DNA from: a virus
Direction: 5' to 3' (one strand)
IMG/VR virus record: IMGVR_UViG_3300025846_000006
Span: 1 to 40,055 of that record
Length of the DNA stretch: 40,055 bases
Below are positions 7,408 to 40,055 of the stretch, piece by piece. The notes beneath the pieces were generated by a model. That model was not told where the DNA came from, did no database searches, and saw nothing but the letters and a program-made list of their open reading frames with translations. The translations under genes were made by a program, and so were the position numbers. Each line of letters starts with the position of its first letter. Position 1 is the first letter of the stretch.

Positions 7408-7415
7408 GATTCCTC

Positions 7416-8996: not shown

Positions 8997-9526
8997 TTCT
9001 TCTTCCTCTCAGGCGGCTTTGACGTCGGCGGCCTGAATGGATCAGCGGATGCCTGGTTGTTGGAAACGCCAAAGTTGGGTTTTGTAGATTCCGGGACTTT
9101 GATACCGGTTCTGGCCGACGGCGTGAAGCCCATCTCGCGTGCTGACTTCATCATCGCATCGTGATAGGTCTTCGAGATATTGACCCAGGGAGAGACCTGT
9201 TCAGCGCAATACCCATGCTGGCCGGTAATGATCACGGTCGGACCTTCTCCATTCGGTGGCATTTCAAGATGCTTCTCGGCTTGACGCCAGCGAGCGTACC
9301 CTTGGCAGTACGAAGACAGGACTGCTCTGTCGACGGACGTCAGAAGGCCGGGAACCTTCGAGAGGATCGTGATGACTCTGCGCCATTCTGTTTTTGCCTC
9401 GCCCGTCAGCCAATTGGGGCAACTGATGACTGCGGTCTCGAACTTCGGCTCGTTCAGGTTCTTGATGCGCCCACTACCGAGCTTTTTCAGGGAAGAAGGC
9501 ATGGCTTTCGGGCCTCTTCTACCCAT
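8993..9526 (-). CDS. terS: Terminase small subunit, P27 family
   Basis: The start was trimmed to ATG 9526 (AGGGG-N8-ATG). The N-terminus MGRRGPKAMPSSLKKLGSGRIKNLNEPKFE and the segment W..V...L......T..D...L..YC are typical of the P27 family. Confidence 0.85.
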   Translation of the reverse strand: MGRRGPKAMPSSLKKLGSGRIKNLNEPKFETAVISCPNWLTGEAKTEWRRVITILSKVPGLLTSVDRAVLSSYCQGYARWRQAEKHLEMPPNGEGPTVIITGQHGYCAEQVSPWVNISKTYHDAMMKSAREMGFTPSARTGIKVPESTKPNFGVSNNQASADPFRPPTSKPPERKKK

Positions 9527-9711
9527 TTCGATGGCCCCTATGGCTGAAAACTCGGACATTCGTGGTTTGCTTGCCCACCACCGGCTCTGAGGCGTTCACG
9601 TTGTAGAGATTTGACCCGCCCCTCCCACCATGCATGACCACTACGTTTACAGTCACGCGGTCGCGCCCTGGAACGCAGTCATAGAGAGCAGAACTCGATG
9701 TCAAAGAAGGG

Positions 9712-13056: not shown

Positions 13057-13259
13057 TCCAACACCGCATCCGGATCACAACGACCCAACAGGAAACAGGG
13101 CCACTGACCGTCCCCAGTTCCTTCTTTCTCAAACCTGCAGTGCACGCACTCAGACGCTCCTACATGCCTTCCACCATCATCCTCAGATCCACGGTTCCTC
13201 GACTGTGTGTTTGGAAACAGCTCGTCAACATAGCCACTGTCGACCGGCCCGCGTCTCAC
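13053..13259 (-). CDS. Hypothetical protein, paralogous N-terminus (VDSGYVDELFP)
   Basis: 68 aa. The GTG start overlaps the upstream stop (GTGA). Confidence 0.5.
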   Translation of the reverse strand: MRRGPVDSGYVDELFPNTQSRNRGSEDDGGRHVGASECVHCRFEKEGTGDGQWPCFLLGRCDPDAVLE

Positions 13260-13789
13260 TTCGCACCACCTATCCGCAGAATCTCAACAGGAACATTCTT
13301 GCGCCTGCCAAAATGTGTTGCTTCGTGCGTTGACCATAAGAACACATCTAGTTTGTAGCCTCTGATACTGCCACCAGTGTCAAGTACCTCACATACTTTT
13401 CCATTGTTATACCCGGGTATCCGTACTAGCGAGTGCATCGGCAATAAACACAAGTCTGCGGCGACACCTCCGACTCTTACTCGTTGTCCGGAAGCGGTCA
13501 TAAGAGGATTGCCGTCACATTCAGCCGCAGTCGGCGAATAACACGTTATCTCGAACTTTAGTAGTGCCTTAACAGGTTTTGACACCCTTGTCGTCACCTT
13601 TTCAGTGGGAAGTGCTACGCTTGCCAGCCTGCGAGCGACCCGGAAGTTGACGATATCCCCTGCGGTGGCCTGCCTGGGCGCCAGAAGCATGAGCATCAGA
13701 ACGAACAGCGCGACAAGGGCTGCCACGAGCAGGACAATGGCGATCTGGCTGTAGTCGACGCGCGCCCGCTTGCGAGAGGACGACTTCAT
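13256..13789 (-). CDS. Membrane-anchored 3D-domain protein (MltA/YabE-type cell-wall-binding or lytic fold)
   Basis: 177 aa. The N-terminal TM segment is IAIVLLVAALVALFVLMLMLLA. The 3D pattern is ITCYSPT..ECDGNPLMTASGQRV..GGVAAD...LPMHS.VRIPG.....CEVLDTGGSIRGYKLDVF. Confidence 0.7.
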   Translation of the reverse strand: MKSSSRKRARVDYSQIAIVLLVAALVALFVLMLMLLAPRQATAGDIVNFRVARRLASVALPTEKVTTRVSKPVKALLKFEITCYSPTAAECDGNPLMTASGQRVRVGGVAADLCLLPMHSLVRIPGYNNGKVCEVLDTGGSIRGYKLDVFLWSTHEATHFGRRKNVPVEILRIGGAK

Positions 13790-14803: not shown

Positions 14804-14995
14804 TTATTTACGGACATGACCCGCCGCCTCGAAGACAACTCTGTCGGCCCACTCAGCCTTTTTCCCCTTGTTCCACTGGGAAACAGGCCTCAGATAGCCA
14901 ACCACACGAGAGTAAACTTCCGTCCTGGTGCGCTTGGCTGCCGGGATGATGACACCGTTGTCCAGCTGGAGATCACCGTTTGCAAGTTCAACCAT
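14804..14995 (-). CDS. Stand-alone NrdD C-terminal (glycyl-radical loop)-like mini-protein
   Basis: 63 aa counted from ATG 14995 (GAGGTGG-N6-ATG). EVYSRVVGYLRPVSQWNKGKKAEWADRVVFE matches the conserved class III RNR C-terminal motif (R.xGYL....wN.GK..E...R), which carries the radical glycine. Confidence 0.6.
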   Translation of the reverse strand: MVELANGDLQLDNGVIIPAAKRTRTEVYSRVVGYLRPVSQWNKGKKAEWADRVVFEAAGHVRK

Positions 14996-15260
14996 AGGGT
15001 GCCACCTCACTGATGTCCGCTCCGCAGTTGGCGCAGACCATCGGGTTCTGATGTGCGAACTCTGCCGGGTCAATGAACCCACCTGGAGACCGATAGCCTT
15101 CCGGCTTGTCATCGATCGGGCGATGCCAGAAGTTGATACGCCCGCATTTTGGACAGCCGGTAGCTTTCAGACCAACATCTGCAAGTGTCGATTGCCGAAA
15201 ACGTCCACCGCTACCTCGTGCAATAATGTGTCCGTTTGATGCTTTGTAGGCTCGGTTCAT
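14988..15260 (-). CDS. Zinc-ribbon protein (CPKCG...CANCG), translationally coupled to the NrdD-like ORF
   Basis: 90 aa with two CxxC pairs. An 8-nt overlap (ATGGTTGA) links it to 14804..14995. Confidence 0.5.
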   Translation of the reverse strand: MNRAYKASNGHIIARGSGGRFRQSTLADVGLKATGCPKCGRINFWHRPIDDKPEGYRSPGGFIDPAEFAHQNPMVCANCGADISEVAPYG

Positions 15261-15976: not shown

Positions 15977-16467
15977 ACCGTCACCCCCAGCACTCCGCAA
16001 ACGAGCCGTCCCAGCACATCAACGAGAACTGGGCCCTGAGCTCCTATCTCGACGGGACGATGAAGCTGTACCTGGTATGCCAGAGTCCCCTTGAAGTCAA
16101 TCCTTATCTGTTCGATACGCAGACTGCCACGGTCTCCGTTTTCTGCCAGTGTCCGCACCCCCATCTTCTCGGCGACTTCCTTGGCATCCAGGGAGAGCAG
16201 CCACATCTCGAGGGTGTCGGCACGGTAGGCGGCATACGTGTGTGCACGAATCCCGCCATGCTGGTCTTTGGCTCCTTCGCCACACGCATCAAACTCGTGG
16301 AAATCAAACTTACCATTACCATGCAAGTCTTGTCCAGCGCACTGTTCGAACCACACACCATCGCAGGGACCGTATTCAATCCCATGGTCTGGCTGCGTCC
16401 GCACATGCCTCAGGAACCCTGCGTCATAAAGCCTCCTGCTGACTTCGAGTGATGTGTATTCGATCAT
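15973..16467 (-). CDS. Hypothetical protein
   Basis: 164 aa. ATGA overlap with the antirepressor gene. Confidence 0.55.
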   Translation of the reverse strand: MIEYTSLEVSRRLYDAGFLRHVRTQPDHGIEYGPCDGVWFEQCAGQDLHGNGKFDFHEFDACGEGAKDQHGGIRAHTYAAYRADTLEMWLLSLDAKEVAEKMGVRTLAENGDRGSLRIEQIRIDFKGTLAYQVQLHRPVEIGAQGPVLVDVLGRLVCGVLGVTV

Positions 16468-17195
16468 GCCACCACCTCGCAGATCATGTCAAATACTCGC
16501 CGCTGCCAATGCAACTGGTACACGCACTTGCCATTCTCCAGTTGGACCGGGAGTGTCTTGACGTAGTCCTTGCCCTTGTCAGAAGGAACCCACTCGCCGC
16601 CTACACGGTACTGCAAACCCGCGAATTGAAGGCGCTTGTTGGTCTCTATGCCAGACATACGCGGCGAGAACATCCTGCCGATCTGCGTTGGAGTCACATA
16701 TTCCAGAGCTGCCGATTCAGGCACCGGCAGCGCCGGGATCCCCTGGGCGATCTTGTCGACGCGCTGACTTACTTGGTCAACTTTGGCATTGGCCGCGGCG
16801 ATCTGCTGGTCCTGGCGCTCGAGGTCGTCCACGAGTCCGCGGAGGATACCATAGACGTTCTTCGAGCTTGGCGGGGTATAGCTGCCGGTCTTGCGGATTT
16901 GTGGAAGGACGTCGGACGCTACCCAGCTGGTGAACTTCTCTGCTTCGTCTTTCCGGCTCGTGAAGGCCAGCTTGTAGAGTCCGGCTTCTGTAATAACGGT
17001 CACTGTCTGCTTTCCCCCAAGGGTATCCACAGTACTGAGACCCTTCATGACGTCCGGCAACCGTGCCAACGCCTGCGACGTGTTAGCAATCGCCAGGACT
17101 TCACAGACGTCCCTTGCTATAAACCACGGTTCTCCATCCTTGTTCACGGTCCTCACTTGCTGCGTTTGATACTGAAACACCTGTAGTTCTTCCAT
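16464..17195 (-). CDS. Antirepressor: Bro-N domain plus KilAC/ANT C-terminal domain
   Basis: The start was trimmed to ATG 17195 (GGGGAGG-N6-ATG). The Bro-N pattern is LQVFQY....VRTV..DGEPWFIARDVCEVL, and the KilAC-like C-terminus is YVTPTQIG... Confidence 0.85.
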   Translation of the reverse strand: MEELQVFQYQTQQVRTVNKDGEPWFIARDVCEVLAIANTSQALARLPDVMKGLSTVDTLGGKQTVTVITEAGLYKLAFTSRKDEAEKFTSWVASDVLPQIRKTGSYTPPSSKNVYGILRGLVDDLERQDQQIAAANAKVDQVSQRVDKIAQGIPALPVPESAALEYVTPTQIGRMFSPRMSGIETNKRLQFAGLQYRVGGEWVPSDKGKDYVKTLPVQLENGKCVYQLHWQRRVFDMICEVVA

Positions 17196-17204
17196 TTGTT
17201 GCCT

Positions 17205-17218
17205 CCCCAAGTCTGCTA
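17205..17218 (-). promoter_or_regulatory. Start-associated-like box TAGCAGACTTGGGG (exact) in the 31-nt gap before ATG 17195
   Basis: The coding strand reads TAAGGTAGGACTAGCAGACTTGGGGAGGCAACAAATG. Confidence 0.65.
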
Positions 17219-17226
17219 GTCCTACC

Positions 17227-18024
17227 TTACTTCTGGCGCATACTCTCGCCAATAAAATTGACCCAGCTTGCCATCTCCAAGAGCCGGTCGGTGATACGCT
17301 CGAATCCTGCCCGCTCCTTGAAGTCTTTCCAACTGAGATTCGTGGTCATGACGATTGGCAGTTCGCGCCCATACCGATATTCGACGACTTCCTCCATCTG
17401 CGCCAGGGCGAATGGCTCGACGTACTCTCGGCCGAAGTCATCCACGAAGAAGTACCGTGCGTCCTGATTGTCAATGGACCCTCCATTGTGCAGGGTTGTG
17501 AAGATGCCGGCCGAACGCCAGAAGGCGAAGAGACTCGCCCGGCGAAGGGAATGCTCGATATCCATGCACGCCCGTTCCGCAAGCATCCGGGCAAGATAGG
17601 CCATAGCTGTTGTCTTCCCTGTTCCTTTTGGTCCTGCCAGGATGATGGAGCTCGCCTTGTCCAATGTCGCCTTCTTTTGGATCAGGGCTGGGTCACAGTG
17701 GAGATATCGGGAGCCGTAGACGTCCTGAAAGGCTTTCATCACTTCGTCTGGCACGTTCGCGCGGCTGACGAGCGCTTTGTCCTGGTCCGCTTTGTCGAAC
17801 TGGACGTTATGCTCCCACTTTGGACATGCCGGGAGAAGAGCACACCAGTCCTTCCACGTCGAAGCGTTTGTCAGCTTCGCGTGCCAGAGGTCGGATGCCC
17901 CGACATAGGACGTCTGCCATTGAGTCAGATCATCAGTCAAACCTTCCTCGGCGTTACGAACGAGGCGGGCGAGGATCTCCTGTGTAGAGTCCTTGCGAAT
18001 TTCTGTTGTCTCAATCATGGACAT
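17227..18024 (-). CDS. DnaC/IstB-like AAA+ helicase loader
   Basis: Walker A is LAGPKGTGKTT and Walker B is YFFVDDFG. The start is ATG 18024 or 18018, overlapping the end of the organizer gene. Confidence 0.8.
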   Translation of the reverse strand: MSMIETTEIRKDSTQEILARLVRNAEEGLTDDLTQWQTSYVGASDLWHAKLTNASTWKDWCALLPACPKWEHNVQFDKADQDKALVSRANVPDEVMKAFQDVYGSRYLHCDPALIQKKATLDKASSIILAGPKGTGKTTAMAYLARMLAERACMDIEHSLRRASLFAFWRSAGIFTTLHNGGSIDNQDARYFFVDDFGREYVEPFALAQMEEVVEYRYGRELPIVMTTNLSWKDFKERAGFERITDRLLEMASWVNFIGESMRQK

Positions 18025-18850
18025 GGTCCTCAGCTCCGTCGAAGTCGTGTTCATTCGAGACAGATGTATGGCGTTGAAGGGTCTCACGTTTCGGAGGGTT
18101 AGTCAGATAGCTCTCGAACTTTGTACCGAACAAGGTCTCTGGCCTGAGATACGTCTGCATCTTCACATCGCCGTACCAGGCGAGGACCATGTTGTCGACG
18201 ACGGTCTTAAAGTTCTCCAGAGTGAAGCCTTCATGCCATCTTGCTCTGATCATTGCCTGTGTCTTGTCGGTCGAAGGTTTAAAGAGAGTGTGTGCCTTGG
18301 CGTTCAGATAGGCGATGATTTCAGGGTAGGGGATGGCGGGCGTTTTCTGCCCGACAATGGTTTTCTCTTTGGATAAGGATTCGGATAAGGATAAGGATAA
18401 GGATTCAGACGGCGGATTGTTGCAACTCGCCGCAACTCGCCGCAACTCGCCGCAACTCGCCGCCGATTGTACCAAGGTGTCGAGAGTAGCCGCAATGTGC
18501 TGCGCGTCGCTGCCATCTGCCGCAGGGAGCGGACACTTGTGACGCTTGTTGCGAACGCGCTGATGCTTCTCCCATTTGGACACCTGGAGATATTCTTTGC
18601 CTTCGGCCTGGTACAGGGTAATCAGGCCAACTCTAGCAAGGTCCAGCAGCCAGGTCTTCATATCTTCGACGGGTATTTTGCTGATGCGGAGAGGATAACA
18701 CCGTGCCAAGACAACGACCGGGCGAGCATCAGTACAGCCATAGTCGTCGACGACGACCAGCAATCGATAGAATAGGTTCTCTTGCGATGGACAGAGTTCG
18801 TCCAGGGTTTCAGATGTAAGGAGGGAATCACTGAGGATTCTATTCGACAT
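18011..18850 (-). CDS. Replisome organizer / DnaD-like replication initiation protein (phage TIGR02220-type C-terminus)
   Basis: The N-terminus is ..FYRLLVVVDDYG....GLITLYQAEGKEYLQVSKWEKHQRVR. The C-terminus is IIAYLNAKAHTLFKPSTDKTQAMIRARWHEGFTLENFKTVVDNMVLAWYGD..MQTYLRPETLFGTKFESYL. The start is ATG 18850 or GTG 18859. Confidence 0.8.
   Translation of the reverse strand: MSNRILSDSLLTSETLDELCPSQENLFYRLLVVVDDYGCTDARPVVVLARCYPLRISKIPVEDMKTWLLDLARVGLITLYQAEGKEYLQVSKWEKHQRVRNKRHKCPLPAADGSDAQHIAATLDTLVQSAASCGELRRVAASCNNPPSESLSLSLSESLSKEKTIVGQKTPAIPYPEIIAYLNAKAHTLFKPSTDKTQAMIRARWHEGFTLENFKTVVDNMVLAWYGDVKMQTYLRPETLFGTKFESYLTNPPKRETLQRHTSVSNEHDFDGAEDHVHD
18371..18406. repeat. Six tandem hexamers GGAT(A/T)(A/C) inside the organizer gene
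   Basis: ggataa ggattc ggataa ggataa ggataa ggattc. They encode SESLSLSLSESLS in the inter-domain linker. Confidence 0.85.
18422..18461. repeat. Four perfect tandem 10-bp repeats GCAACTCGCC inside the organizer gene (candidate origin iterons)
   Basis: The 10-bp unit is not a multiple of 3, so it is read in three frames (SCGELRRVAASC). The array is flanked by gattgt on both sides. Confidence 0.85.
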
Positions 18851-19061
18851 CGGGTTCACCGCGGCCTGGTGATCCGGATTCGAGGTCTTTCTGGTCAGCG
18901 ATCCACTTACGGACCCTGTCTTCCGGGAAGAGTTTCTGGCACAGGCGCATGAGTTCCTGACGCTCTGGACCAGAGAGGCTGGATTTCGCCGCCATGTCGA
19001 GGACGATATTTGGAATGAGAGTGCGCCCGCGTAGGGTCAATGGTGTCTTGCTCAGCTTCAT
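18840..19061 (-). CDS. Hypothetical protein, first gene of the replication operon
   Basis: 73 aa, with GGAGG-N6-ATG. Confidence 0.5.
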   Translation of the reverse strand: MKLSKTPLTLRGRTLIPNIVLDMAAKSSLSGPERQELMRLCQKLFPEDRVRKWIADQKDLESGSPGRGEPDVE

Positions 19062-26088: not shown

Positions 26089-26309
26089 TTGCTGCCGTGG
26101 GGCATTAGTAGCTCGGGTTTCTTTTCCTGCTCCATGATCTTCTCTCGCTCAAGTTTCTCCAAGACTGCAACCTCTGAGAAGCTGGACCTGTTCCAACCCC
26201 GATGATGCACACACCAATCTCCGACCGCCACTGTCGTGCTTGTGTTCCAGTGGATCACCAACTTTTCTCTCGCCGGTTTCTCTTTCAATGCTCGATCAAG
26301 ATAGCCCAA
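26073..26309 (-). CDS. Ribbon-helix-helix protein, ParG-like centromere-binding candidate
   Basis: 78 aa, TTG start with GGAGG-N6. KLVIHWNTSTTVAVGDWCVHHRGWNRSSFSEVAVLEKLE fits a beta-strand, helix, G-x-(S/N), helix layout. It lies directly downstream of parA. Confidence 0.5.
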   Translation of the reverse strand: MGYLDRALKEKPAREKLVIHWNTSTTVAVGDWCVHHRGWNRSSFSEVAVLEKLEREKIMEQEKKPELLMPHGSKEARG

Positions 26310-27039
26310 GGGTGACCTCCAGTTCAGCCAGAAATGCCTTCCACGCCAGCGATACCTTCTCCCTCGGCGCGAACTCCCATACCGGCTCAGGTACGTCCAG
26401 CGCCTGCGTCACTCGAATGCTCGAGGGGATGATCGTGTCGAAGACGGCGGTGTCATACGTATCGTGAAGCATAACCGCGAAGGCCTTGGCATACGTTGTC
26501 CTCTCCTGGACGGCATTTAACAGGAGACCAGCAATCCGTAGGGAGGGGTTTCCATTCTCGCGAACGAAGATGACCTTGTTAAACAACCGCTTCATCGCGT
26601 CCTTGTTGAATTTGTCCGGGCGTACTGGAATGAGGACACAGTCTGCAGCGATGAGCGCGTTCGTGACCATAAGACCAAGGTGCGTCGGCGTGTCGAAGAT
26701 CGTCACCTGGTGGTCAAGTCTGGCGAGCAATTCACGGAGGCGAAAAGACCTTTCATAATCGGGATTCGCCTCGTATTCTCCCAAGGTATCGTCGCTACCG
26801 AGCAGATCCAAATTGAGAGTTACTGTCATAGGGGTCGGAGCCGCGACCTTCGGGGCGAAAACCTGTGTGATGCTATGTTCTTTTGGCAACTCCTGAGTCA
26901 AGAGACCGGTCAAGTTTGCCTGATCGTCCAGGTCAATGGCGAGCGTCGTCTTTCCCTGGGAGGCGAAGTAGCGGGCGATGTGATAGGCAATCGTTGTCTT
27001 GCCTACACCCCCTTTTAAGTTGCAGACGGCGACCTTCAC
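26296..27039 (-). CDS. parA: ParA/Soj-type partition ATPase (small, type Ib-like)
   Basis: 247 aa. It has the deviant Walker A VCNLKGGVGKTT and LAIDLDDQAN. The GTG start overlaps the upstream stop. Confidence 0.9.
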   Translation of the reverse strand: MKVAVCNLKGGVGKTTIAYHIARYFASQGKTTLAIDLDDQANLTGLLTQELPKEHSITQVFAPKVAAPTPMTVTLNLDLLGSDDTLGEYEANPDYERSFRLRELLARLDHQVTIFDTPTHLGLMVTNALIAADCVLIPVRPDKFNKDAMKRLFNKVIFVRENGNPSLRIAGLLLNAVQERTTYAKAFAVMLHDTYDTAVFDTIIPSSIRVTQALDVPEPVWEFAPREKVSLAWKAFLAELEVTLGLS

Positions 27040-27233
27040 AGCAGGCGCTCTGTCTCGGGAATCTGCTCCGTCAGGAGCGTAGCTTCCGGTGGCGTATCAT
27101 TGCAAGCACGGTACATGGCGTCAATTGCCTCATCGATAATCTGCGTTGGGTGCTTCCCCAAAGCCCGAGCCAGATACCTTACCTTTGCTCCCGTCAACTC
27201 ATCCAATTCAGGATGACTCTTCTTGTATGTCAT
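27036..27233 (-). CDS. Small protein upstream of parA
   Basis: 65 aa counted from ATG 27233, preceded by a degenerate box and GGGGAG. Confidence 0.45.
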   Translation of the reverse strand: MTYKKSHPELDELTGAKVRYLARALGKHPTQIIDEAIDAMYRACNDTPPEATLLTEQIPETERLL

Positions 27234-27246
27234 GGACTCCCCTTTT

Positions 27247-27260
27247 CCCAAGTCCACTGG
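27247..27260 (-). promoter_or_regulatory. Degenerate start-associated-like box CAGTGGACTTGGGA
   Basis: The coding strand reads CCAGTGGACTTGGGAAAAGGGGAGTCCATG. Confidence 0.4.
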
Positions 27261-27261
27261 T

Positions 27262-27290
27262 ATCTTGACGCTAAAGTTCCTAGATGTCAA
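27262..27290 (-). promoter_or_regulatory. Candidate par promoter: consensus -35 TTGACA with a weak -10 (CAAGAT)
   Basis: The -35 is plus tgtcaa (27285..27290) and overlaps the 17-nt element at 27288..27304. Confidence 0.3.
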
Positions 27291-27304
27291 GGGGGCAAGG
27301 AGCC
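27288..27304. repeat. 17-nt element, inverted copy of 19341..19357
   Basis: Plus strand caagggggcaaggagcc is the reverse complement of ggctccttgcccccttg. Confidence 0.8.
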
Positions 27305-27595
27305 AAGGAAGCAGGGGGACAAGGCGCTCGTCTTTGAGGATTCGGCCACGACGGCGAAGTTCTCCGAGATCACGGCGTATTAGGGTAAGTCAAACTCGCC
27401 TGCCGTTCGCGAACCGTTGCGATAGCGGGCGTATTTGAAGCCTAGGGGTACTGGCACAAGGCACCGCATTTGAAACCTCTAATTTAGGCCACTTTTCTGC
27501 ATCCCATGTGTCCCAACTATACAAATCTGACTAGTATCGACACATCCATTGCAGATTGATAACACTTTTGATATGTTTCTGTCATGGGGTATCAA

Positions 27596-27613
27596 TTTGT
27601 TGACGTCAACAAA
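27596..27613. repeat. Perfect 18-bp palindrome TTTGTTGACGTCAACAAA
   Basis: Read directly from the sequence. It lies in the AT-rich non-coding region. Confidence 0.9.
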
Positions 27614-27733
27614 ACGATCGGCACACTCCTTAAGATTTTCTGAAGTATCCGGGATTGCCAGAAAATTGCCAAGCTTGCACGCCTACTTACTAAAACTGTG
27701 CGAGAAAGTAAACAATGTATACGTCTTCGGAGG

Positions 27734-27789
27734 TTATCTGCATTAGAGTTGTTGCAAAGTATGCATCTACTGAACCGATATGCAGATAA
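27734..27789. repeat. 10-bp inverted repeat TTATCTGCAT ... ATGCAGATAA with a 36-bp spacer
   Basis: The arms are 27734..27743 and 27780..27789. Confidence 0.85.
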
Positions 27790-27830
27790 TGCATGTTTGG
27801 TATCAATTCGGTCCTGCGTATAAAACCCCG

Positions 27831-27863
27831 CAAGTACCCGTCAAGTACCCAGCAAGTAAGCCG
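27831..27863. repeat. Three tandem 11-bp iteron-like repeats CAAGTA(C/A)(C/G)C
   Basis: caagtacccgt caagtacccag caagtaagccg. The period is one helical turn. Confidence 0.8.
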
Positions 27864-27912
27864 GAACCCTTAACGGAGTTAACCCTTCCGCCTTGCCACG
27901 AAACGTGTAACA

Positions 27913-27940
27913 CAAAGTGCGTTATTCAAAGTGCGTTATT
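27913..27940. repeat. Perfect tandem duplication of the 14-mer CAAAGTGCGTTATT
   Basis: The copies are 27913..27926 and 27927..27940. The second copy overlaps the endonuclease VII stop codon. Confidence 0.9.
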
Positions 27941-28418
27941 GGGTGCGTCTTAGGTATTCGGCAAGAAGTATCGCCCTTTCGGGGTCATCTTTAAGCGAAC
28001 CTGCGGCGATGTTGCAGGAACGGCACAAAAGACCACGAATCTTGCCAGTTACATGATCGTGGTCTACGCACATCATCTTGGCCTTATTCCCCGCAATATT
28101 GTTGCCACAGGCGGCGCACTTCCCGCCCTGAGCAATAAACATTTTACCGTAGTCTGCCATTGTTATTCCGTAAAGGCGCTTAAGATTATACTCGTATACC
28201 TTCTTGGGGTCAGATTTATAAGGACCGTGTATTTCACGAGACCGTTTCTTTGACCCCGCAATGGACGCTCTTCCGCTTGGGGTCCGCCGATATGCGCTCA
28301 TGTACTCTTTGCCATACCCGCGCTTCGGTTTCGGACAATCAAGACAATATTTCTGCGCGGGATTGGTCAGTTGATATTCCCTGCCACAGATTGCACAAAT
28401 CTTTGTTTTGTACCCCAT
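27936..28418 (-). CDS. Endonuclease VII family (T4 gp49-like) junction-resolving nuclease
   Basis: 160 aa. CAACGNNIAGNKAKMMCVDHDHVTGKIRGLLCRSCNIAAG is the Endonuclease_7 signature. The gene has AT-richer codon usage than its neighbours. Confidence 0.85.
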   Translation of the reverse strand: MGYKTKICAICGREYQLTNPAQKYCLDCPKPKRGYGKEYMSAYRRTPSGRASIAGSKKRSREIHGPYKSDPKKVYEYNLKRLYGITMADYGKMFIAQGGKCAACGNNIAGNKAKMMCVDHDHVTGKIRGLLCRSCNIAAGSLKDDPERAILLAEYLRRTQ

Positions 28419-28427
28419 TGTCTCTCA

Positions 28428-28478
28428 CCTAATCCTTTCCTAATCCCTTTTGACTTGTTGGCAGCACCGGGGATTAGG
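28428..28478. repeat. 8-mer CCTAATCC x2 (11-bp spacing) plus one inverted copy GGATTAGG in the endonuclease VII leader
   Basis: The copies are 28428..28435, 28439..28446 and, inverted, 28471..28478. In RNA, CCUAAUCCC could pair with either GGGAUUAGG-type copy next to the SD. Confidence 0.75.
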
Positions 28479-28522
28479 TCCGGGGTCATGCGGGTAATTA
28501 AACCGCATCAGCTGCCACATAT

Positions 28523-28550
28523 ATTATACTGAGAAACGCTAGTGATGCAA
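28523..28550 (-). promoter_or_regulatory. Promoter candidate TTGCAT-N16-TATAAT for the endonuclease VII cassette
   Basis: The -10 is a perfect match (plus attata, 28523..28528). The -35 is plus atgcaa (28545..28550). Confidence 0.45.
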
Positions 28551-28580
28551 GCAGGAACAAGGATTTAGCGTTTTACCCAT

Positions 28581-28606
28581 TTGGAATAATTCCAAGAGAA
28601 TAATTC
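28581..28606. promoter_or_regulatory. Operator-like palindromes TTGGAATAATTCCAA and GAATAATTC, 14 bp apart
   Basis: The 15-bp palindrome is 28581..28595. The core GAATAATTC repeats at 28584..28592 and 28598..28606, upstream of the -35. Confidence 0.45.
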
Positions 28607-28689
28607 ACCACCTAGTCCCCACCGGAGTAGTATTGATGCAGCGACTTGACACCCGTGTACGATGCAGTCACGGGATGTCTCCATTGTCG

Positions 28690-29019
28690 TCACCAGGGGT
28701 TCTTCTTCTTTTTGCGCTTCGGGATCAGCCCGGCGATCATGGCGTCACGCAGTGCATCAGCGCCCGCCTCATTGAGCGAGCTGCCGGTCAAATACTGGCC
28801 TACGTGCGCCAGCTCATGGATGATGATCATGTTGGTCTTTTCCTTACTGAGCCCCTCTCGGATGTAGATATGAATTACACGAAGGCCTCGAAAGACGGGG
28901 GCCTTGTCATGTGGAGTGACCGTCAGCCCATGGCAGACTCCCGGCTTGTATTCCGGTGCCGCTGCAACGTCAATCAGCGCCTGTGGCACCTTCTCGATCT
29001 GAACCACGACCATCGCCAT
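28690..29019 (-). CDS. Minimal HExxH zinc metallopeptidase (ImmA/IrrE- or SprT-like, tentative)
   Basis: 109 aa. RVIHIYIREGLSKEKTNMIIIHELAHVGQYL resembles the ImmA/IrrE segment (..I.in..ls......FtiaHElgH). AGGAG-N8-ATG. It lies 5 nt downstream of the HTH-phosphoesterase gene. Confidence 0.55.
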   Translation of the reverse strand: MAMVVVQIEKVPQALIDVAAAPEYKPGVCHGLTVTPHDKAPVFRGLRVIHIYIREGLSKEKTNMIIIHELAHVGQYLTGSSLNEAGADALRDAMIAGLIPKRKKKKNPW

Positions 29020-29024
29020 GCGGT

Positions 29025-30236
29025 CTACTCCTGGTGATATTCGTAGAATTGCTTGTCGAAGAAGCTCTTGAATCGGCAGCCCACCTCGTCGATGATGCCG
29101 CCGTCATTCACGTGGATGTCCAGGATGCATCCGCCGACATGTGCCTGAATCTGCTTCTTCCGCATGAACGGTGTCTGATCTTGACAGCAGCCGGGCTGTA
29201 GAACATAAACCTCCCTAGGATAGCCGAACTCGAACTTGTGGTAGTGCCCCATCACGACAATGCGCGGCTTCTCACCACCCTGTAAGCTCTCGACATACTT
29301 CTGTGCCTTGTAACTCGTGGCGTAGGCACTCCCGCCGCCCGCATGGATGACGCGCATGATCTGTCCCGAGGCAAGTTCGATGTCGCGTTCCATGTAGCCG
29401 ATGTCTTCAATGTCATCGCGCCCGGCCTTGTGCGCCTCGAGAGCAAGCAGCTGCCCGATGTTGATCCCCTCTCTCTGGACCCACCAGCCTTCGTGATCGT
29501 CTCCGGATAGTACCTTGGTCTTGATGCCGGGGATCTGAGGGCAGACGCGCAAGAACTCGTGAATCTGCGGGGTCACGCCATGGATCAGCAGGTCGAACTC
29601 GTTGAACTTCGCCTGACCATCGCACCAGTTTCCCGCATGATAGACCGTCGTGACGCCCTCTGCAGCATACCATTCATAGAGCTTCGTGATCACGTCCTCG
29701 CGGCAGTACTTCGAGCTCGTGTGCCAGTCCGCCGTGTGCCCAATGACAAAGTGTCCGGCTCGGGCTCCGAGCCCTTCGAGAGTTTCCTTGACCGGTTCCT
29801 CCGGAGGCCGGATGTCGTTTTGAATGGAGTAGATTCCATTCTCGCAATCAAGGGTGACCGCTCGTTCCTTCAGCTCGTCGAGTCCAGCTTGAATGACCTT
29901 CGGCGCAACCTCGAAGAAATCGGCGAGCTCATCTTTGGTACACAGGTACTTCATCAGGTATTTGCGTATGCGTTCTGCCAGACTGTTGTCTTTGGCGACA
30001 AGGGGAACGCTCGGGTTTACTTCTCTAGGAAGGATCGGCTTTCCGATCGAATACCCCTTACGTGGCCCTGGCATCTTCATGTTCAGTCCGAACTGCTTCG
30101 CATAATGCCGGACGGTGTTCATCGGGATGTTCAGAGCAAGGGCAGCCTTGGCATAGTCACCCGCCTGTTCGAAGGGATGTTGCTGAGCATACTCGACAAC
30201 CAGCCGCTGACGTTCCGTTCGGATTGCCAAGCTCAT
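29025..30236 (-). CDS. HTH + winged-HTH + calcineurin-like metallophosphoesterase fusion protein
   Basis: 403 aa. The N-terminal HTH is YAKAALALNIPMNTVRHYAKQFG. The wHTH is CTKDELADFFEVAPKVIQAGLDELKERAVTLDCENGIYSI. The phosphoesterase motifs are GHTADWH, HAGNWCDG, LSGDDHEGW and VVMGHYH. Confidence 0.65.
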   Translation of the reverse strand: MSLAIRTERQRLVVEYAQQHPFEQAGDYAKAALALNIPMNTVRHYAKQFGLNMKMPGPRKGYSIGKPILPREVNPSVPLVAKDNSLAERIRKYLMKYLCTKDELADFFEVAPKVIQAGLDELKERAVTLDCENGIYSIQNDIRPPEEPVKETLEGLGARAGHFVIGHTADWHTSSKYCREDVITKLYEWYAAEGVTTVYHAGNWCDGQAKFNEFDLLIHGVTPQIHEFLRVCPQIPGIKTKVLSGDDHEGWWVQREGINIGQLLALEAHKAGRDDIEDIGYMERDIELASGQIMRVIHAGGGSAYATSYKAQKYVESLQGGEKPRIVVMGHYHKFEFGYPREVYVLQPGCCQDQTPFMRKKQIQAHVGGCILDIHVNDGGIIDEVGCRFKSFFDKQFYEYHQE

Positions 30237-30303
30237 GCGTCCTCTTGCTGAAAAGATACGACCTTGCTATAGTGTGTGCCGTCCATGGAGACAGCCTCCT
30301 TTG

Positions 30304-30336
30304 GATAAAACGAGAGGGGCCGTCGATAACGGCCCC
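30304..30336 (-). terminator. Rho-independent terminator after the lysis cassette
   Basis: The coding strand reads GGGGCCGTTATCGACGGCCCC (7-bp GC stem, 7-nt loop) followed by TCTCGTTTTATCC. It begins 13 nt after the holin stop. Confidence 0.65.
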
Positions 30337-30348
30337 TTGGCAATTCGA

Positions 30349-30744
30349 TCAGACTGAAGGCGGTACTGTCGGCGTTGTCGCCGGGACGATCGGCTTGCCA
30401 GCATCTATAATGGGTATCGCCTGGTCGACGTAGAGAACTTGCTTCAAATCGACCGTCGCTTGCTTTTCGACCGCAGTCGTCAATAGATGTGGTTCCCATA
30501 CCTGCTTGAAGGCGAACTCTGCTTCACCAAGGACAGCACCCAATATGATAGGCCAGTTTCCGCTTGCAACGACGGTCTTGAGCGAACCGTCCAGCCACAT
30601 CACAAGAATGGCCAGACCGACTGCCAGTGCGAAGGCAATCAGTTGTTTGATGCGCCCGTCCCAGTTCTTCTTGAGCAGGACAGACGCGATGATGGGCGCG
30701 AAGAAGCCAATCACCCAGATCCACATACTCGGTAAATTGTTCAC
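30349..30744 (-). CDS. Holin candidate (three predicted TM segments)
   Basis: 131 aa, GTG start with AGGAGG-N5. The hydrophobic segments are MWIWVIGFFAPIIASVLL, LIAFALAVGLAILVMWL and WPIILGAVLG. It is adjacent to the endolysin. Confidence 0.55.
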   Translation of the reverse strand: MNNLPSMWIWVIGFFAPIIASVLLKKNWDGRIKQLIAFALAVGLAILVMWLDGSLKTVVASGNWPIILGAVLGEAEFAFKQVWEPHLLTTAVEKQATVDLKQVLYVDQAIPIIDAGKPIVPATTPTVPPSV

Positions 30745-30753
30745 GTGTACCTC

Positions 30754-31590
30754 CTACTTCTTTACAAGATTCTTCATCCACGCCAGCATCTCTGCCGGGG
30801 TCATGATGTGGATGGCTGGTTTGGTGACGGGTGTTGCAACTACTGGTTTTACTACAACGACAGGCTTGCCAACGTTCTTGACCCAGGCCAGCATTTCGGC
30901 CCCAGTCATTATGTGGATCGTCGGTTTTGCTACCGGTTTAACTGCTGGCTTTGGCGGGTTTATGGCGGGCTTTGCAACAACGGGCCTCACGACAACGGGC
31001 GCCCTCACCGGCTCCCATGCGCCGAAGTCAAACTGTTGTGACTCATTCAGATCCACTGAGGCCCCGGCCACGGTTTGACCATTCGAGTATTGCAGCAGGT
31101 GGGCATGGGCCGAGACCTTCCCGGCCGACCACGCGTAGGTCTGCCAGAACCAGCAGGCAAAACCAGAAGCATGGCAACGTTCAACAACACCATAGGAACC
31201 ATAGACCCCAACTCTGGCAGTGTAGATAACGCTACCCACGCCATACAGGTAAGCATCAATCGCAGGCTGTTGTGCCGCCGTAGCGGGAATGTCCACGGCA
31301 AAGTAGATCGGCTTGTTGTCAGGGAATCCGATAGCGCGGGCATACGCGAGAGCTCTCTTACCGTCTGCCACGCCTGCTGTCTGGCCTTCAAGCGCCCTTC
31401 CAGCATAGCTCTCATATATAACGAGAAGCCCGAGTCCTGCTGCCCTGATTGCAGCGGCTTCGGCCTTGGAAACGCCCTTTCCGCTAGCGACAGTACCGTC
31501 GCCGAACAGGTAGCGAACACAGAAACCATAACCAAGGGCCTTGACCCGCCTCAGATCGGGGCGCGAGTGGGAGTAGTCGAGACCCTTCAT
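30754..31590 (-). CDS. Endolysin: DUF1906 (Rv2525c-like glycoside-hydrolase fold) catalytic domain plus two C-terminal repeats
   Basis: 278 aa. The N-terminal domain reads GLDYS......VKALGYGFCVRYL...K.VSKAEAAAIRAAGLGLLVIYE...IYFAVD...VGVYGSYG...WFWQTYAWS. The C-terminus is KP(T/A)IHIMT(G/P)AEMLAW(V/M)KN x2. Confidence 0.75.
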   Translation of the reverse strand: MKGLDYSHSRPDLRRVKALGYGFCVRYLFGDGTVASGKGVSKAEAAAIRAAGLGLLVIYESYAGRALEGQTAGVADGKRALAYARAIGFPDNKPIYFAVDIPATAAQQPAIDAYLYGVGSVIYTARVGVYGSYGVVERCHASGFACWFWQTYAWSAGKVSAHAHLLQYSNGQTVAGASVDLNESQQFDFGAWEPVRAPVVVRPVVAKPAINPPKPAVKPVAKPTIHIMTGAEMLAWVKNVGKPVVVVKPVVATPVTKPAIHIMTPAEMLAWMKNLVKK

Positions 31591-32084
31591 TTTAGGAACC
31601 CATTGATAACGAACCCAAGGATGCCCCCGACAAGAGAGACAAGCGCCAAGAGCAGCGGAATGGAAAGGCCGGACCTGCCCTGGCTTTCGTTTTGCGCTTT
31701 CTGTATCAAGCCGATTGCCGCAAGAAATGCGTCATCCTTTAGTTGTTGCTGCCGCTGCTGCTCTTGTGCCTTATCATTTATTTCTTTAGTCACCTGCTGT
31801 AAATTCTTGGCAACGACATCGGCTGTCGTGTTTACGAGCGCTCTCTGATTGTCATTGAACGCACTCACCTGGCTCGCCAAGGTTGCTTGTGTGTCTAGCG
31901 CGCGGTCAGCCGCAACGCGAACCGCAGTTGCATCTACATCCCGTATGGCGTCAATGCGCTTGGTCTCAGCAACGCTACGTTCATCAACGCGCTTCATTTC
32001 CGCCTTGAACCAATTAGTCAGTCCGTTGACTGTGGTATTGACCAGCAACAATGTGTTTGGTGTCGGATCGCTTTTTTCGTTCAT
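31587..32084 (-). CDS. XhlA-like coiled-coil protein with a C-terminal TM (lysis-associated)
   Basis: 165 aa. It has a long helical region and the C-terminal TM LSIPLLLALVSLVGGILGFVINGF. ATGA overlap with the endolysin gene. Confidence 0.45.
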   Translation of the reverse strand: MNEKSDPTPNTLLLVNTTVNGLTNWFKAEMKRVDERSVAETKRIDAIRDVDATAVRVAADRALDTQATLASQVSAFNDNQRALVNTTADVVAKNLQQVTKEINDKAQEQQRQQQLKDDAFLAAIGLIQKAQNESQGRSGLSIPLLLALVSLVGGILGFVINGFLK

Positions 32085-39672: not shown

Positions 39673-40017
39673 TCAGTTCACAACTCGTGTGCCCTTAAAC
39701 CCGTCGACAAGCATATCCACCATCGCAAGCATCTGCTCAGGGGTCTGCCCCTGTTTCACCGGCCGGTCATAGAGTAGGAAATCGGCCAGTTCAACTGGAT
39801 TGCTATCAGAAGATCGCTGCATATTCACCATGACCTCACAAATCTTTGCAGCCTGATAATCTGCTGCCACTTCAGCCCGATGTTCACGTGCGTCAAATGC
39901 CTTCCACAACTCTTGCCATTCCAGCGGCGTGCAGGTCAGGAATTCGTCGTTGGTAAGTCCGAAGGTGACGCGGGCAATTCCCCAGAGCTCGGTAGCACTG
40001 GGGTCGCTGCGTTTGGG
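39673..40017 (-). CDS. gpT-like -1 frame extension of the tail assembly chaperone (G-T fusion C-terminal part)
   Basis: The frame is exactly -1 relative to 8..595 after closing the circle. The only independent start is a TTG at 39909 without a Shine-Dalgarno (SD). The frame stays open upstream to the slippery site. It sits immediately upstream of the tape measure gene, the canonical G/GT arrangement. Confidence 0.6.
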   Translation of the reverse strand, partial: PKRSDPSATELWGIARVTFGLTNDEFLTCTPLEWQELWKAFDAREHRAEVAADYQAAKICEVMVNMQRSSDSNPVELADFLLYDRPVKQGQTPEQMLAMVDMLVDGFKGTRVVN

Positions 40018-40055
40018 TCCGCACCCTCCGTGTCCTTCCCCGCCTTCATCGCATG
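39929..40055. repeat. Terminal direct repeat copy 2 (identical to 1..127)
   Basis: Exact 127-bp identity with the window start. 127 is a common maximal assembler k-mer. Confidence 0.9.
40011..40017 (-). promoter_or_regulatory. Same slippery heptamer C_CCA_AAC (copy in the 3' terminal repeat, contiguous with the T-frame ORF)
   Basis: Plus strand gtttggg. The -1 frame continues as PKRSDPSATELWGIARVTFGLTNDEFLTCTPLEWQELWKAF... Confidence 0.55.

Follow-up and report, generated by a model that had tools for sequence, protein, structure and literature searches.

The question raised by positions 28,690 to 30,236 of IMG/VR virus record IMGVR_UViG_3300025846_000006 (analysed as one stretch of 40,055 nt, which is referred to here as the window) is what function is served by a two-gene cassette, in which a gene for a helix-turn-helix (HTH) and winged HTH (wHTH) protein fused to a calcineurin-like metallophosphoesterase (MPE; gene 1) is followed by a gene for a minimal HExxH...E zincin-like protein (gene 2). 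From the letters alone, the cassette had been read as an ImmR/ImmA-like lysogeny or plasmid-prophage switch or, alternatively, as a nucleotide-signal-degrading anti-defence module. The coordinates of the two open reading frames (ORFs; 403 and 109 aa, 5 nt apart) were confirmed, and the calls of HTH, wHTH, deviant calcineurin-like phosphoesterase and minimal HExxH protein were borne out by an AlphaFold2 (AF2) model together with alignments. The function proposed here is a different one: at somewhat less than an even chance, gene 1 encodes a DNA-tethered nuclease of the DP1/Mre11 type, serving phage DNA metabolism or attack on host DNA, with the gene 2 product as an accessory protease.

The first step towards an answer is the domain architecture of the gene 1 protein. 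Its AF2 model, built with 68 relatives as the alignment, reached a predicted local distance difference test score (pLDDT) of 89 and a predicted template modelling score (pTM) of 0.77, and comprises an N-terminal three-helix HTH, a disordered linker (residues 58-82), a wHTH and a C-terminal MPE domain (Table 1). The N-terminal HTH is common to some distant relatives only, the matches reaching the first ~30 query residues in the loci L019, L035, L044, L054 and L093. The family profile matched wHTH structures of the GntR/MarR/ArsR type (E 0.002-0.03) and relatives carry precomputed Pfam HTH_11 or HTH_24 assignments, while some family members are without a recognisable wHTH, their matches beginning near residue 160. 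In Pfam, the gene 1 protein itself matched Metallophos/Metallophos_2 below the gathering threshold (22.8 bits against 27 and 16.6 against 21.5), with an E-value of 1e-4 for the sub-threshold Metallophos_2 match; many relatives carry a precomputed PF12850 assignment. The sole PHROG match is to ‘DNA repair exonuclease’ (E 1e-3).

The MPE superfamily is recognised by the signature motifs DxH, GDxxDR, GNH[DE], H and GHxH. Across the 68 family members, eight residues of the MPE domain are invariant, namely D170, H172, N203, D247, H248, H298, H331 and H333. Motifs I (D170-W-H172), IV (H298) and V (G-H331-Y-H333) are canonical, whereas in motif II (G-N203-W-C-D-G) Asn replaces the bridging Asp and in motif III (G-D-D247-H248-E) Asp replaces Asn, both swaps being family-wide. 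The motif forms picked out earlier (ADWH, GNWCDG, GDDHE and GHYH) are thus present and are a property of the family. Since the motif residues, swaps included, are invariant, the ligand set is to be regarded as present but non-canonical. Further, the family has invariant motifs of its own (QKYVESLQGGEKP and CxxDQTPFMRK), and its catalytic domain holds many invariant Arg and Lys residues, which suggest a polyanionic substrate.

The closest fold is that of DP1, the 3'-5' proofreading exonuclease subunit of archaeal DNA polymerase D (PolD; PDB 5IHE, 6HMF, 8PPT and 6KNB), a protein related to the B-subunits of eukaryotic polymerases. In a Foldseek search of the PDB with the gene 1 model, ranks 1-10 were all PolD DP1 (E 2.5e-9 to 8.5e-8), followed by Vps29/YfcE-like proteins (~1e-6), LpxH and GpdQ (~1e-5) and Mre11 (2e-5); the two-layer beta-sandwich MPE fold was matched with a Foldseek probability of 1.00 to many MPE structures. 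In a viral structure library, the true family members came first, followed by many phage MPEs named ‘DNA polymerase II small subunit’ by their depositors. At the sequence level, a profile of the MPE domain alone retrieved DP1 entries only from the PDB sequences (two archaeal species, E ~0.1), the alignment covering GHxH together with a common QxQTxF stretch and setting AGNWIDG against AGDVVDG. Two NCBIfam DP1 models matched gene 1 residues 322-373 (E 3.8e-5 and 2.8e-4), with scores of 22.8 and 19.7 bits that lie below the equivalog cut-offs of 445 and 425, and phmmer searches of the PDB sequences with the full protein and with the MPE domain alone gave nothing meaningful. The likeness to DP1 extends from the phosphodiesterase domain and the order GHxH then QxQTxF to the active site. 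The DP1 metal ligands D363, H365, D407, N453, H500, H563 and H565 and the proton donor H451 (PMC4996933) map to D170, H172, N203, D247, H298, H331 and H333 and to H248 of gene 1, all of them invariant. Predicted fold and sequence, taken together, direct us to the nucleases within the MPE superfamily. The sequence-only reading had named homology to a housekeeping-type nuclease devoid of DNA-binding function as a result that would refute it; what was found comes near to this, DP1 and then Mre11 being the closest solved relatives, but DNA-binding-type domains are present.

The gene 1 protein is nevertheless distinct from DP1 in several respects. DP1 has an OB-fold inserted in its phosphodiesterase domain as well as an N-terminal domain (PMC4996933), neither of which is seen in the gene 1 model, where HTH and wHTH stand instead. 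The partners DP2 or a PolB catalytic subunit with C-terminal zinc-finger domain are absent from the complete 39.9-kb genome; relative to DP1, Asp has given way to Asn in motif II, and Asn to Asp in motif III; and the gene 1 family is viral, occurring in bacterial as well as archaeal viruses. Mre11/SbcD shares the superfamily and the fold and is a weaker match than DP1 (Foldseek E ~2e-5), and gene 1 differs from it in being without a capping domain and without a Rad50/SbcC-like gene in the window genome.

Functional parallels are offered by the calcineurin-like MPEs of mycobacteriophages, whose predicted fold is likewise DP1/Mre11-like. Bxb1 gp47 (a recombination directionality factor, L5 gp54-like) is needed for the replication of phage DNA, and has weak 3' exonuclease activity (PMC11795197), and A10ZJ24 gp48 disrupts host genomic DNA and thereby the expression of defence genes (PMC12287305). 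These MPEs lie among replication genes, are themselves needed if the phage DNA is to replicate, and combine nuclease activity with host DNA damage (PMC11795197, PMC12287305); they also carry inteins beside the catalytic motifs (PMC5050341), as does the gene 1 family. Membership of gene 1 in the Bxb1 gp47 family was rejected (hhalign probability 0.6%; best BLASTP E 0.21). The mycobacteriophage proteins are ~255 aa long and have neither HTH/wHTH nor a zincin partner, and the directionality role of gp47 has no counterpart in the window genome, which holds no serine integrase. Both gp47 and gp48 are therefore kept as a functional analogy, fold-related but not sequence-related.

The family to which gene 1 belongs is large. 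Homologues were found in at least 1436 protein clusters at 90% identity, mostly 370-400 aa and unnamed; some clusters are labelled ‘biotin operon repressor / predicted phosphodiesterase’ by their sources, and a name look-up for the NCBI-sourced members returned none. The retrieved loci (80 from IMG/VR and 17 from metagenome-assembled genomes, MAGs) place the family in viruses and MAGs, bacterial as well as archaeal, the MAG titles naming Atribacterota, Leptospira, Acidobacteria, Alphaproteobacteria, Planctomycetota, Verrucomicrobiota and Paceibacterota on the bacterial side and Heimdall-, Bathy-, Nano- and Woesearchaeota on the archaeal side. Among 50,697 phage records, tblastn of the MPE gave a single match, in Halorubrum tailed virus BLv36, the sole cultured carrier, whose genes are all annotated as hypothetical and whose homologue weakly matches a PHROG SbcD-like family. 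Inteins are inserted at two independent sites within the family-specific invariant motifs, between QKYVE and SLQGGEKP and between QPG and CxxDQTPF (relatives P0005 and P0117, and P0035 and P0073), and a 693-aa family member (4119-6200 in L064) probably holds one as well. Inteins at such sites are typical of phage DNA-metabolism enzymes (PMC5050341), and their presence at two catalytic-core sites marks the family as an important enzyme of DNA metabolism. Separately, a Woesearchaeota MAG (L106) carries two MPE-family genes in tandem (5908-7095 and 7092-8345) with a 4-nt overlap.

Gene neighbourhoods tell the same story. Within 5 kb of the MPE gene, in 76 non-redundant loci, the recurring neighbours were N6/N4 DNA methylases (11 loci), DUF4406 (7), DUF5906 primase-helicase and PolA (6 each), lysozyme and Mom (4 each), and RecA, YqaJ, UvrD and a small dATP/dGTP-diphosphohydrolase-like protein (dGTP diphosphohydrolase; 3 each). 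A census of the largest neighbours (n=99) returned methylases, integrases, DnaB/UvrD/SNF2 helicases, PolA/PolB and ribonucleotide reductase, with portals in 2 of the 99. This is the signature of an accessory DNA-metabolism enzyme and not of an immunity region. The position of the MPE gene in the genome varies widely across the family, and there are late-operon exceptions: the gene follows the lysis genes in the window, lies between portal/HNH and head genes in L005, and in BLv36 lies between portal/minor-head genes and the major head protein gene. The gene directly downstream, here called the slot, is highly variable, and a Pfam census of 79 slot proteins revealed no universal partner; two Acb1/2H-like genes are found there. 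DUF4406 (nucleoside 2-deoxyribosyltransferase-like) also occurs downstream of the MPE, directly adjacent in at least two loci (L032, 2016-2453, and L034), and its recurrence together with that of the diphosphohydrolase hints at a link to nucleotide or base-modification pathways.

The gene 2 protein is a more elusive partner. Its residues H68, E69, H72 and E84 are invariant down to ~30% identity, and the remote relatives P0130-P0135 keep HExxH(x11)E. The C-terminal tail reads KRKKKKNPW, of which KKKKNPW is invariant in the close clusters (n=9), and a basic tail is present in most remote relatives; an exhaustive profile search of 1.84 billion proteins found 8 representatives. Matches in Pfam and PHROG are all sub-threshold and all to metallopeptidase families, aligned on the HExxH helix (in Pfam, DUF6782 at E 3.7e-4, and M56, M91, Aminopep and eCIS_core). 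Neither M78 (PF06114) nor SprT-like (PF10263) was matched at E<=1, and the ImmA/IrrE (M78)-like context that had been ascribed to the HELAH motif did not hold, the weak matches being to other zincin families. SprT-like/Spartan/Wss1 and ArdC-type zincins are small HExxH domains tied to DNA metabolism, as the slot proteins may be, and the basic tail recalls the DNA-binding regions by which Spartan is activated. The third ligand of gene 2 is apparently Glu (HExxH-x11-E), unlike the His of SprT-like proteins, and the protein has 109 residues only. The simplest reading of gene 2 is that of a mini-protease associated with DNA.

The two genes are linked within a sub-clade, and their alleles are exchanged freely. 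A zincin gene lies 1-12 nt downstream of the MPE gene in every inspectable relative of the window MPE sub-clade (at least 68% identity), and the linkage holds in L005, where the cassette and its 5' hairpin sit at another genome position. Relative to the window, identity in one protein does not follow identity in the other: for MPE and zincin, respectively, the values are 99% and 82% in L012, 91% and 98% in L013, 91% and 40% in L111, 74% and 32% in L115, and 68% and 78% in L005. DNA homology breaks at the gene 2 stop (28688-28692) and near the gene 2 start (28988). Because of the decoupled identities and the breakpoints at both gene ends, gene 2 is regarded as an exchangeable, fast-evolving module in a fixed slot. 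In L004 (1902-2672), on a contig otherwise 99.8% identical, the 109-aa gene reads through into a 256-aa ORF whose first 109 aa are identical and whose remainder is unrelated; a lost stop codon could explain this, as could a recombination junction that coincides with the 3' breakpoint of the cassette.

Beyond the sub-clade, the slot is taken by other small HExxH ORFs, 104-136 aa long and with their motif within residues 59-86, in L008, L033, L036 and L050/L052, in at least three further MPE lineages, and zincin-linked MPEs stand at four or more scattered positions in a crude neighbour-joining tree. Small HExxH ORFs are enriched in the slot (7/47, one of the seven being probably spurious, compared with 6/364 for small genes at other places in these loci; p=1.7e-4 by Fisher's test). 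The slot protein of L050 matches Pfam SprT-like at 26.2 bits against a gathering score of 25.6, and its near-twin in L052 also matches (E<=0.001). That of L036 is a probable remote homologue of the window zincin (E 0.003 in a search restricted to 82 slot proteins, with the Glu column aligned), and the remaining ones align with it just along the HExxH helix; comparison by hhalign of the 109-aa profile with the slot proteins of L050 and L008 was not significant, and an iterated hidden Markov model run against every ORF of loci L001-L115 failed to pick up the other slot proteins with HExxH. Co-occurrence of the two genes in other genomes, the lack of which would by the earlier reading have counted against it, is upheld in every inspectable relative of the sub-clade but not in the family as a whole, of which ~85-90% have no HExxH neighbour.

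The analysis establishes the architecture of the domains, the invariant ligand set, the nearest fold, how large and how widespread the family is, the gene neighbourhoods, the linkage of the pair and the shuffling of alleles, whereas DNA as the substrate, the polarity of the nuclease, protease activity and any cooperation of the two proteins are inferred. The HTH and wHTH of gene 1 would hold the enzyme on DNA, and the di-metal centre formed by D170, H172, N203, D247, H298, H331 and H333, with H248 as proton donor, would hydrolyse phosphodiester bonds of DNA as a 3'-5' exonuclease and/or an endonuclease. Likely roles would be the processing of DNA ends, of replication or recombination intermediates, or the damaging of host DNA, and the family as a whole would act as an accessory DNA-metabolism enzyme in viruses of Bacteria and Archaea. 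The lysine-rich tail of gene 2 would bind DNA. Eukaryotic Mre11 acts at DNA ends and cooperates with the SprT-type protease Spartan at protein-blocked DNA; following the same logic, gene 2 could be a DNA-associated protease that clears bound or cross-linked proteins ahead of the nuclease. Alternatively, it might attack a variable host protein, and free allele exchange would fit a protease aimed at variable host targets.

A bolder and rather improbable extension holds that the wHTH-MPE family is a virus-borne sister lineage of DP1, and hence of the B-subunits, which would work as a free-standing DNA-tethered nuclease across viruses of both Bacteria and Archaea; repeated recruitment of mini-zincins in several lineages would have made of it a machine for protein removal followed by resection, the viral counterpart of Spartan/Wss1 plus Mre11. 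If this were true, such a two-enzyme machine could free phage or host DNA of the host proteins attached to it covalently or tightly, defence proteins among them.

Several observations weigh against a nuclease with an accessory protease. For gene 1, the full-length model gave low TM-scores (0.4), because of its extra domains; the DP1 similarity in sequence is local and is not significant alone (E ~0.1); at the Pfam level the relatives are Metallophos_2 proteins, that is generic phosphodiesterases of the YfcE/MJ0936/Vps29 kind, and not the DP1/B-subunit family; and Asn at the bridging-Asp position of motif II is unusual for active MPE nucleases. The late-operon placement in the window, L005 and BLv36 does not fit a replication enzyme. 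For gene 2, the AF2 model (10-sequence alignment) has a pLDDT of 47 and is unusable, a beta-alpha-beta-alpha(HExxH)-alpha order being seen at that low confidence, and the protein is poorly characterised, with no peptidase family above threshold. As for the partnership, free allele shuffling between the genes disfavours a tight co-evolving interface or complex, and since most family members have no zincin neighbour, the zincin is not needed for the core function.

Among the alternatives, an unlikely one makes gene 1 a small-molecule phosphodiesterase, which would degrade an immune second messenger of the host (cyclic nucleotides, cyclic oligonucleotides, cADPR-type molecules or Ap4A) and use its wHTH for dimerisation or regulation. 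The Metallophos_2 and YfcE-type relatives would suit such an enzyme, as would the GpdQ-type and other diesterases among the fold matches; furthermore, counter-defence genes are found in the neighbourhood (methylases, Mom and the two Acb1/2H-like genes directly downstream), and the cassette is a mobile, moron-like element whose mosaic boundaries are sharp. In the fold search, however, DP1 ranks ahead of every small-molecule diesterase, cyclic-nucleotide phosphodiesterases included, by two to four orders of magnitude in Foldseek E-value; the enzyme is fused to two DNA-binding-type domains, and the many invariant basic residues favour a polyanion. Scans of both window proteins gave no PADLOC match at E<=1 and no named anti-defence family. 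The anti-defence idea of the sequence-only reading finds no positive support here and is kept as an unlikely rival.

An explanation of similarly low probability takes the pair as late-expressed and possibly delivered by the virion, either to be injected for the next infection or to act in DNA maturation at packaging. Packaged and injected proteins that act at the start of infection are exemplified by T4 Alt and IPI* and by P1 Dar. The cassette of L005 and the homologue of BLv36, both set among portal and head genes, are what such a role would predict; the window cassette comes after the lysis genes, and a promoter belonging to it was not detected; in addition, fast-evolving, shuffled zincin alleles would fit an arms race with host targets. 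Adjacency to a structural module is nevertheless the minority arrangement (the 2 portals among 99 large neighbours), and in the window a strong terminator precedes gene 1.

It is very unlikely that gene 1 is a bifunctional repressor-enzyme following the logic of BirA or NadR, in which the wHTH would sit on a specific operator with its occupancy set by the substrate or product of the phosphoesterase. The idea draws on the Pfam HTH_11 assignments of relatives (the BirA-type N-terminal domain), on the source labels that combine ‘biotin operon repressor’ with ‘predicted phosphodiesterase’, and on profile matches to MarR/GntR-type regulators. Against it stand the want of an operator-like palindrome beside gene 1, where a terminator and a ribosome-binding site lie upstream, the widely varying genome positions, and the members without a recognisable wHTH.

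Finally, the switch originally envisaged, in which the HTH-wHTH-MPE protein as repressor keeps the phage quiescent until cleaved by the HExxH protein after a signal, recalls ImmR/ImmA of ICEBs1 and phi105 and the M78 switches of the IrrE/DdrO type in having an HTH-protein gene just ahead of a HExxH gene (5-nt gap) on a mobile element, and the ParA and Ant-like genes of a genome without integrase or CI make some unconventional maintenance control conceivable, but it is barely credible given that gene 2 gives no M78/COG2856 signal even at E<=1, that the wHTH has HTH_11/MarR-like and not Xre-type affinity, that the upstream protein is a conserved enzyme whose invariant catalytic centre and intein-bearing catalytic motifs imply selection on enzymatic function and whose closest solved relatives are nucleases (PolD DP1, then Mre11, among others), that most of the family, at least 1436 clusters in size, is without a HExxH neighbour and sits in DNA-metabolism modules (PolA/PolB, primase-helicase) instead of immunity regions, that zincin alleles are swapped against near-identical MPEs, which is unexpected for a specific protease-substrate pair, and that gene 1 is co-directional with all genes, with a terminator and a Shine-Dalgarno sequence and no promoter upstream, no divergent promoter or operator, and no integrase.

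The layout of the cassette complements this picture (Table 1). It had been described as terminator-bounded, which stands for the 5' side and not for the 3' side. The 5' edge is a hairpin running from 30337 to 30315 on the minus strand, its 10-bp stem including 7 GC pairs and its tail being rich in T, and it comes directly behind the holin-like ORF; an identical hairpin stands 5' of the MPE gene in L005, L012 and L013. No canonical terminator was found 3' of gene 2, where the boundary is the sharp mosaic breakpoint at its stop codon. Between the hairpin and gene 1 no promoter was matched, and instead a 17-codon ORF is found there, whose Shine-Dalgarno sequence, AAGGAGG at 30301-30295, is strong. 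The TGA that ends this ORF and the ATG that starts gene 1 overlap in the letters ATGA; the ORF is partly conserved in L012, L013 and L111, and its C-terminal part VVSFQQED is kept in L013 despite an altered start. As judged from the sequence, it may serve translational coupling or be a leader peptide.

Table 1. Position of the cassette, its parts and the context genes in the window
Feature	Position	Strand	Basis or remark
Gene 1, 403 aa, HTH-wHTH-MPE	29025..30236	(-)	ATG start
N-terminal three-helix HTH, residues 8-48	30093..30215	(-)	AF2 helices 8-19, 27-35, 39-48, pLDDT >90
Winged HTH, residues 86-138	29823..29981	(-)	AF2: three helices and beta-hairpin
Calcineurin-like MPE domain, residues ~160-395	29052..29759	(-)	Sub-threshold Pfam Metallophos_2; invariant columns; DP1 similarity
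Gene 2, 109 aa, minimal HExxH...E zincin-like protein	28690..29019	(-)	ATG start
HELAH motif, gene 2 residues 68-72	28804..28818	(-)	
E84 codon, putative third ligand	28768-28770	(-)	
GC-rich terminator-type hairpin, 5' cassette edge	30315..30337	(-)	Terminator scan; AGGGGCCGTTATCGACGGCCCCT then CTCGTTTTAT
17-codon upstream ORF (MDGTHYSKVVSFQQEDA)	30233..30286	(-)	Read from sequence
Putative sigma-70-like promoter of endonuclease VII gene, TTGCAT-16-TATAAT	28523..28550	(-)	By eye
Endonuclease VII (context gene, outside cassette)	27936..28418	(-)	Pfam Endonuclease_7 E 5e-22; PHROG endonuclease VII
Rv2525c-type endolysin	30754-31590	(-)	
Holin-like ORF	30349-30744	(-)	
ParA	26296-27039	(-)	
DnaD-like initiator	18011-18859	(-)	
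DnaC-like loader	17227-18087	(-)	
Ant/Bro-N protein (Ant-like)	16464-17252	(-)	
Small terminase	8993-9559	(-)	
Large terminase	7416-8996	(-)	

Downstream of the cassette, the endonuclease VII gene had been taken as separately promoted. Its identity is secure in Pfam and its promoter is plausible by eye, but a consensus scanner made no call; L110 and L111, whose zincin allele is a different one, keep the stretch from 28528 to 28375 at ~90% conservation. Two palindromes had been put forward for tests of DNA binding. The element at 28581..28606 proved to be a direct repeat (GAATTATTC-N5-GAATTATTC, 28584-28606, minus strand) in the variable spacer 3' of gene 2, and a 37-nt stretch around it (28604-28568) recurs with 86% identity elsewhere in L004, L013 and L110. 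The other is a real 15-nt palindrome (27591-27618) in the intergenic region upstream of ParA, and neither of them lies upstream of gene 1. This intergenic region, a 645-bp AT-richer stretch between endonuclease VII and the ParA operon (27291-27935), holds several inverted repeats and is a candidate centromere (parS), origin or operator of the partition operon, unrelated to the cassette.

The window represents a complete circular or circularly permuted phage genome of ~39.9 kb, as concluded from an exact terminal overlap of 127 bp (1-127 = 39929-40055). All of its genes are carried on the minus strand, with the order of transcription running from the terminases through portal/capsid/tail genes, endolysin, the holin-like ORF, the cassette, endonuclease VII, ParA, HNH, DnaD-like and DnaC-like genes to Ant/Bro-N. 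No integrase or CI-type repressor was found among the ORFs scanned, in agreement with the earlier reading, and no DNA polymerase is present in the genome, whose replication genes are the DnaD-like initiator and the DnaC-like loader only. A search for near-identical DNA with window positions 27000-32000 gave no match among the 50,697 phage records; the virus is not one of the known phages.

Two further genes of this genome merit mention in their own right. A 102-aa ORF (14804-15112, minus strand) matches only the extreme C-terminus of the anaerobic ribonucleotide reductase NrdD, that is the glycyl-radical region (Pfam NRDD, 36.9 bits, above threshold), and may encode a phage-borne stand-alone ‘spare-part’ glycyl-radical protein resembling GrcA/YfiD. 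A second cell-wall-hydrolase-like gene (13256-13789, minus strand; PHROG L-alanyl-D-glutamate peptidase family, E 1e-9) lies in the early region, remote from the endolysin and holin genes (30349-31590).

With respect to novelty, the literature searched describes no wHTH-MPE viral family and no MPE-zincin pair, in line with the earlier remark that the fusion is not a described system. The MPE superfamily and the idea of phage MPE nucleases are already known; that literature yielded no account of an HTH-wHTH-MPE fusion, of the ligand swap, of the affinity to DP1, of so large a family spread over viruses of both domains, or of a slot for mini-zincins. Annotation of the cassette as a module of immunity or lysogeny is to be avoided. 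It belongs to a large unstudied enzyme family, barely recognised by PHROG and Pfam, whose affinity to DP1 is relevant to the question of how the proofreading subunit of PolD arose. Further, that these enzymes are repeatedly paired with very small HExxH proteins which diversify rapidly suggests a partnership of nuclease and protease undescribed in phages. If the gene 1 protein is a nuclease, the family would constitute a widespread new player in the biology of phage replication, recombination or host takeover.

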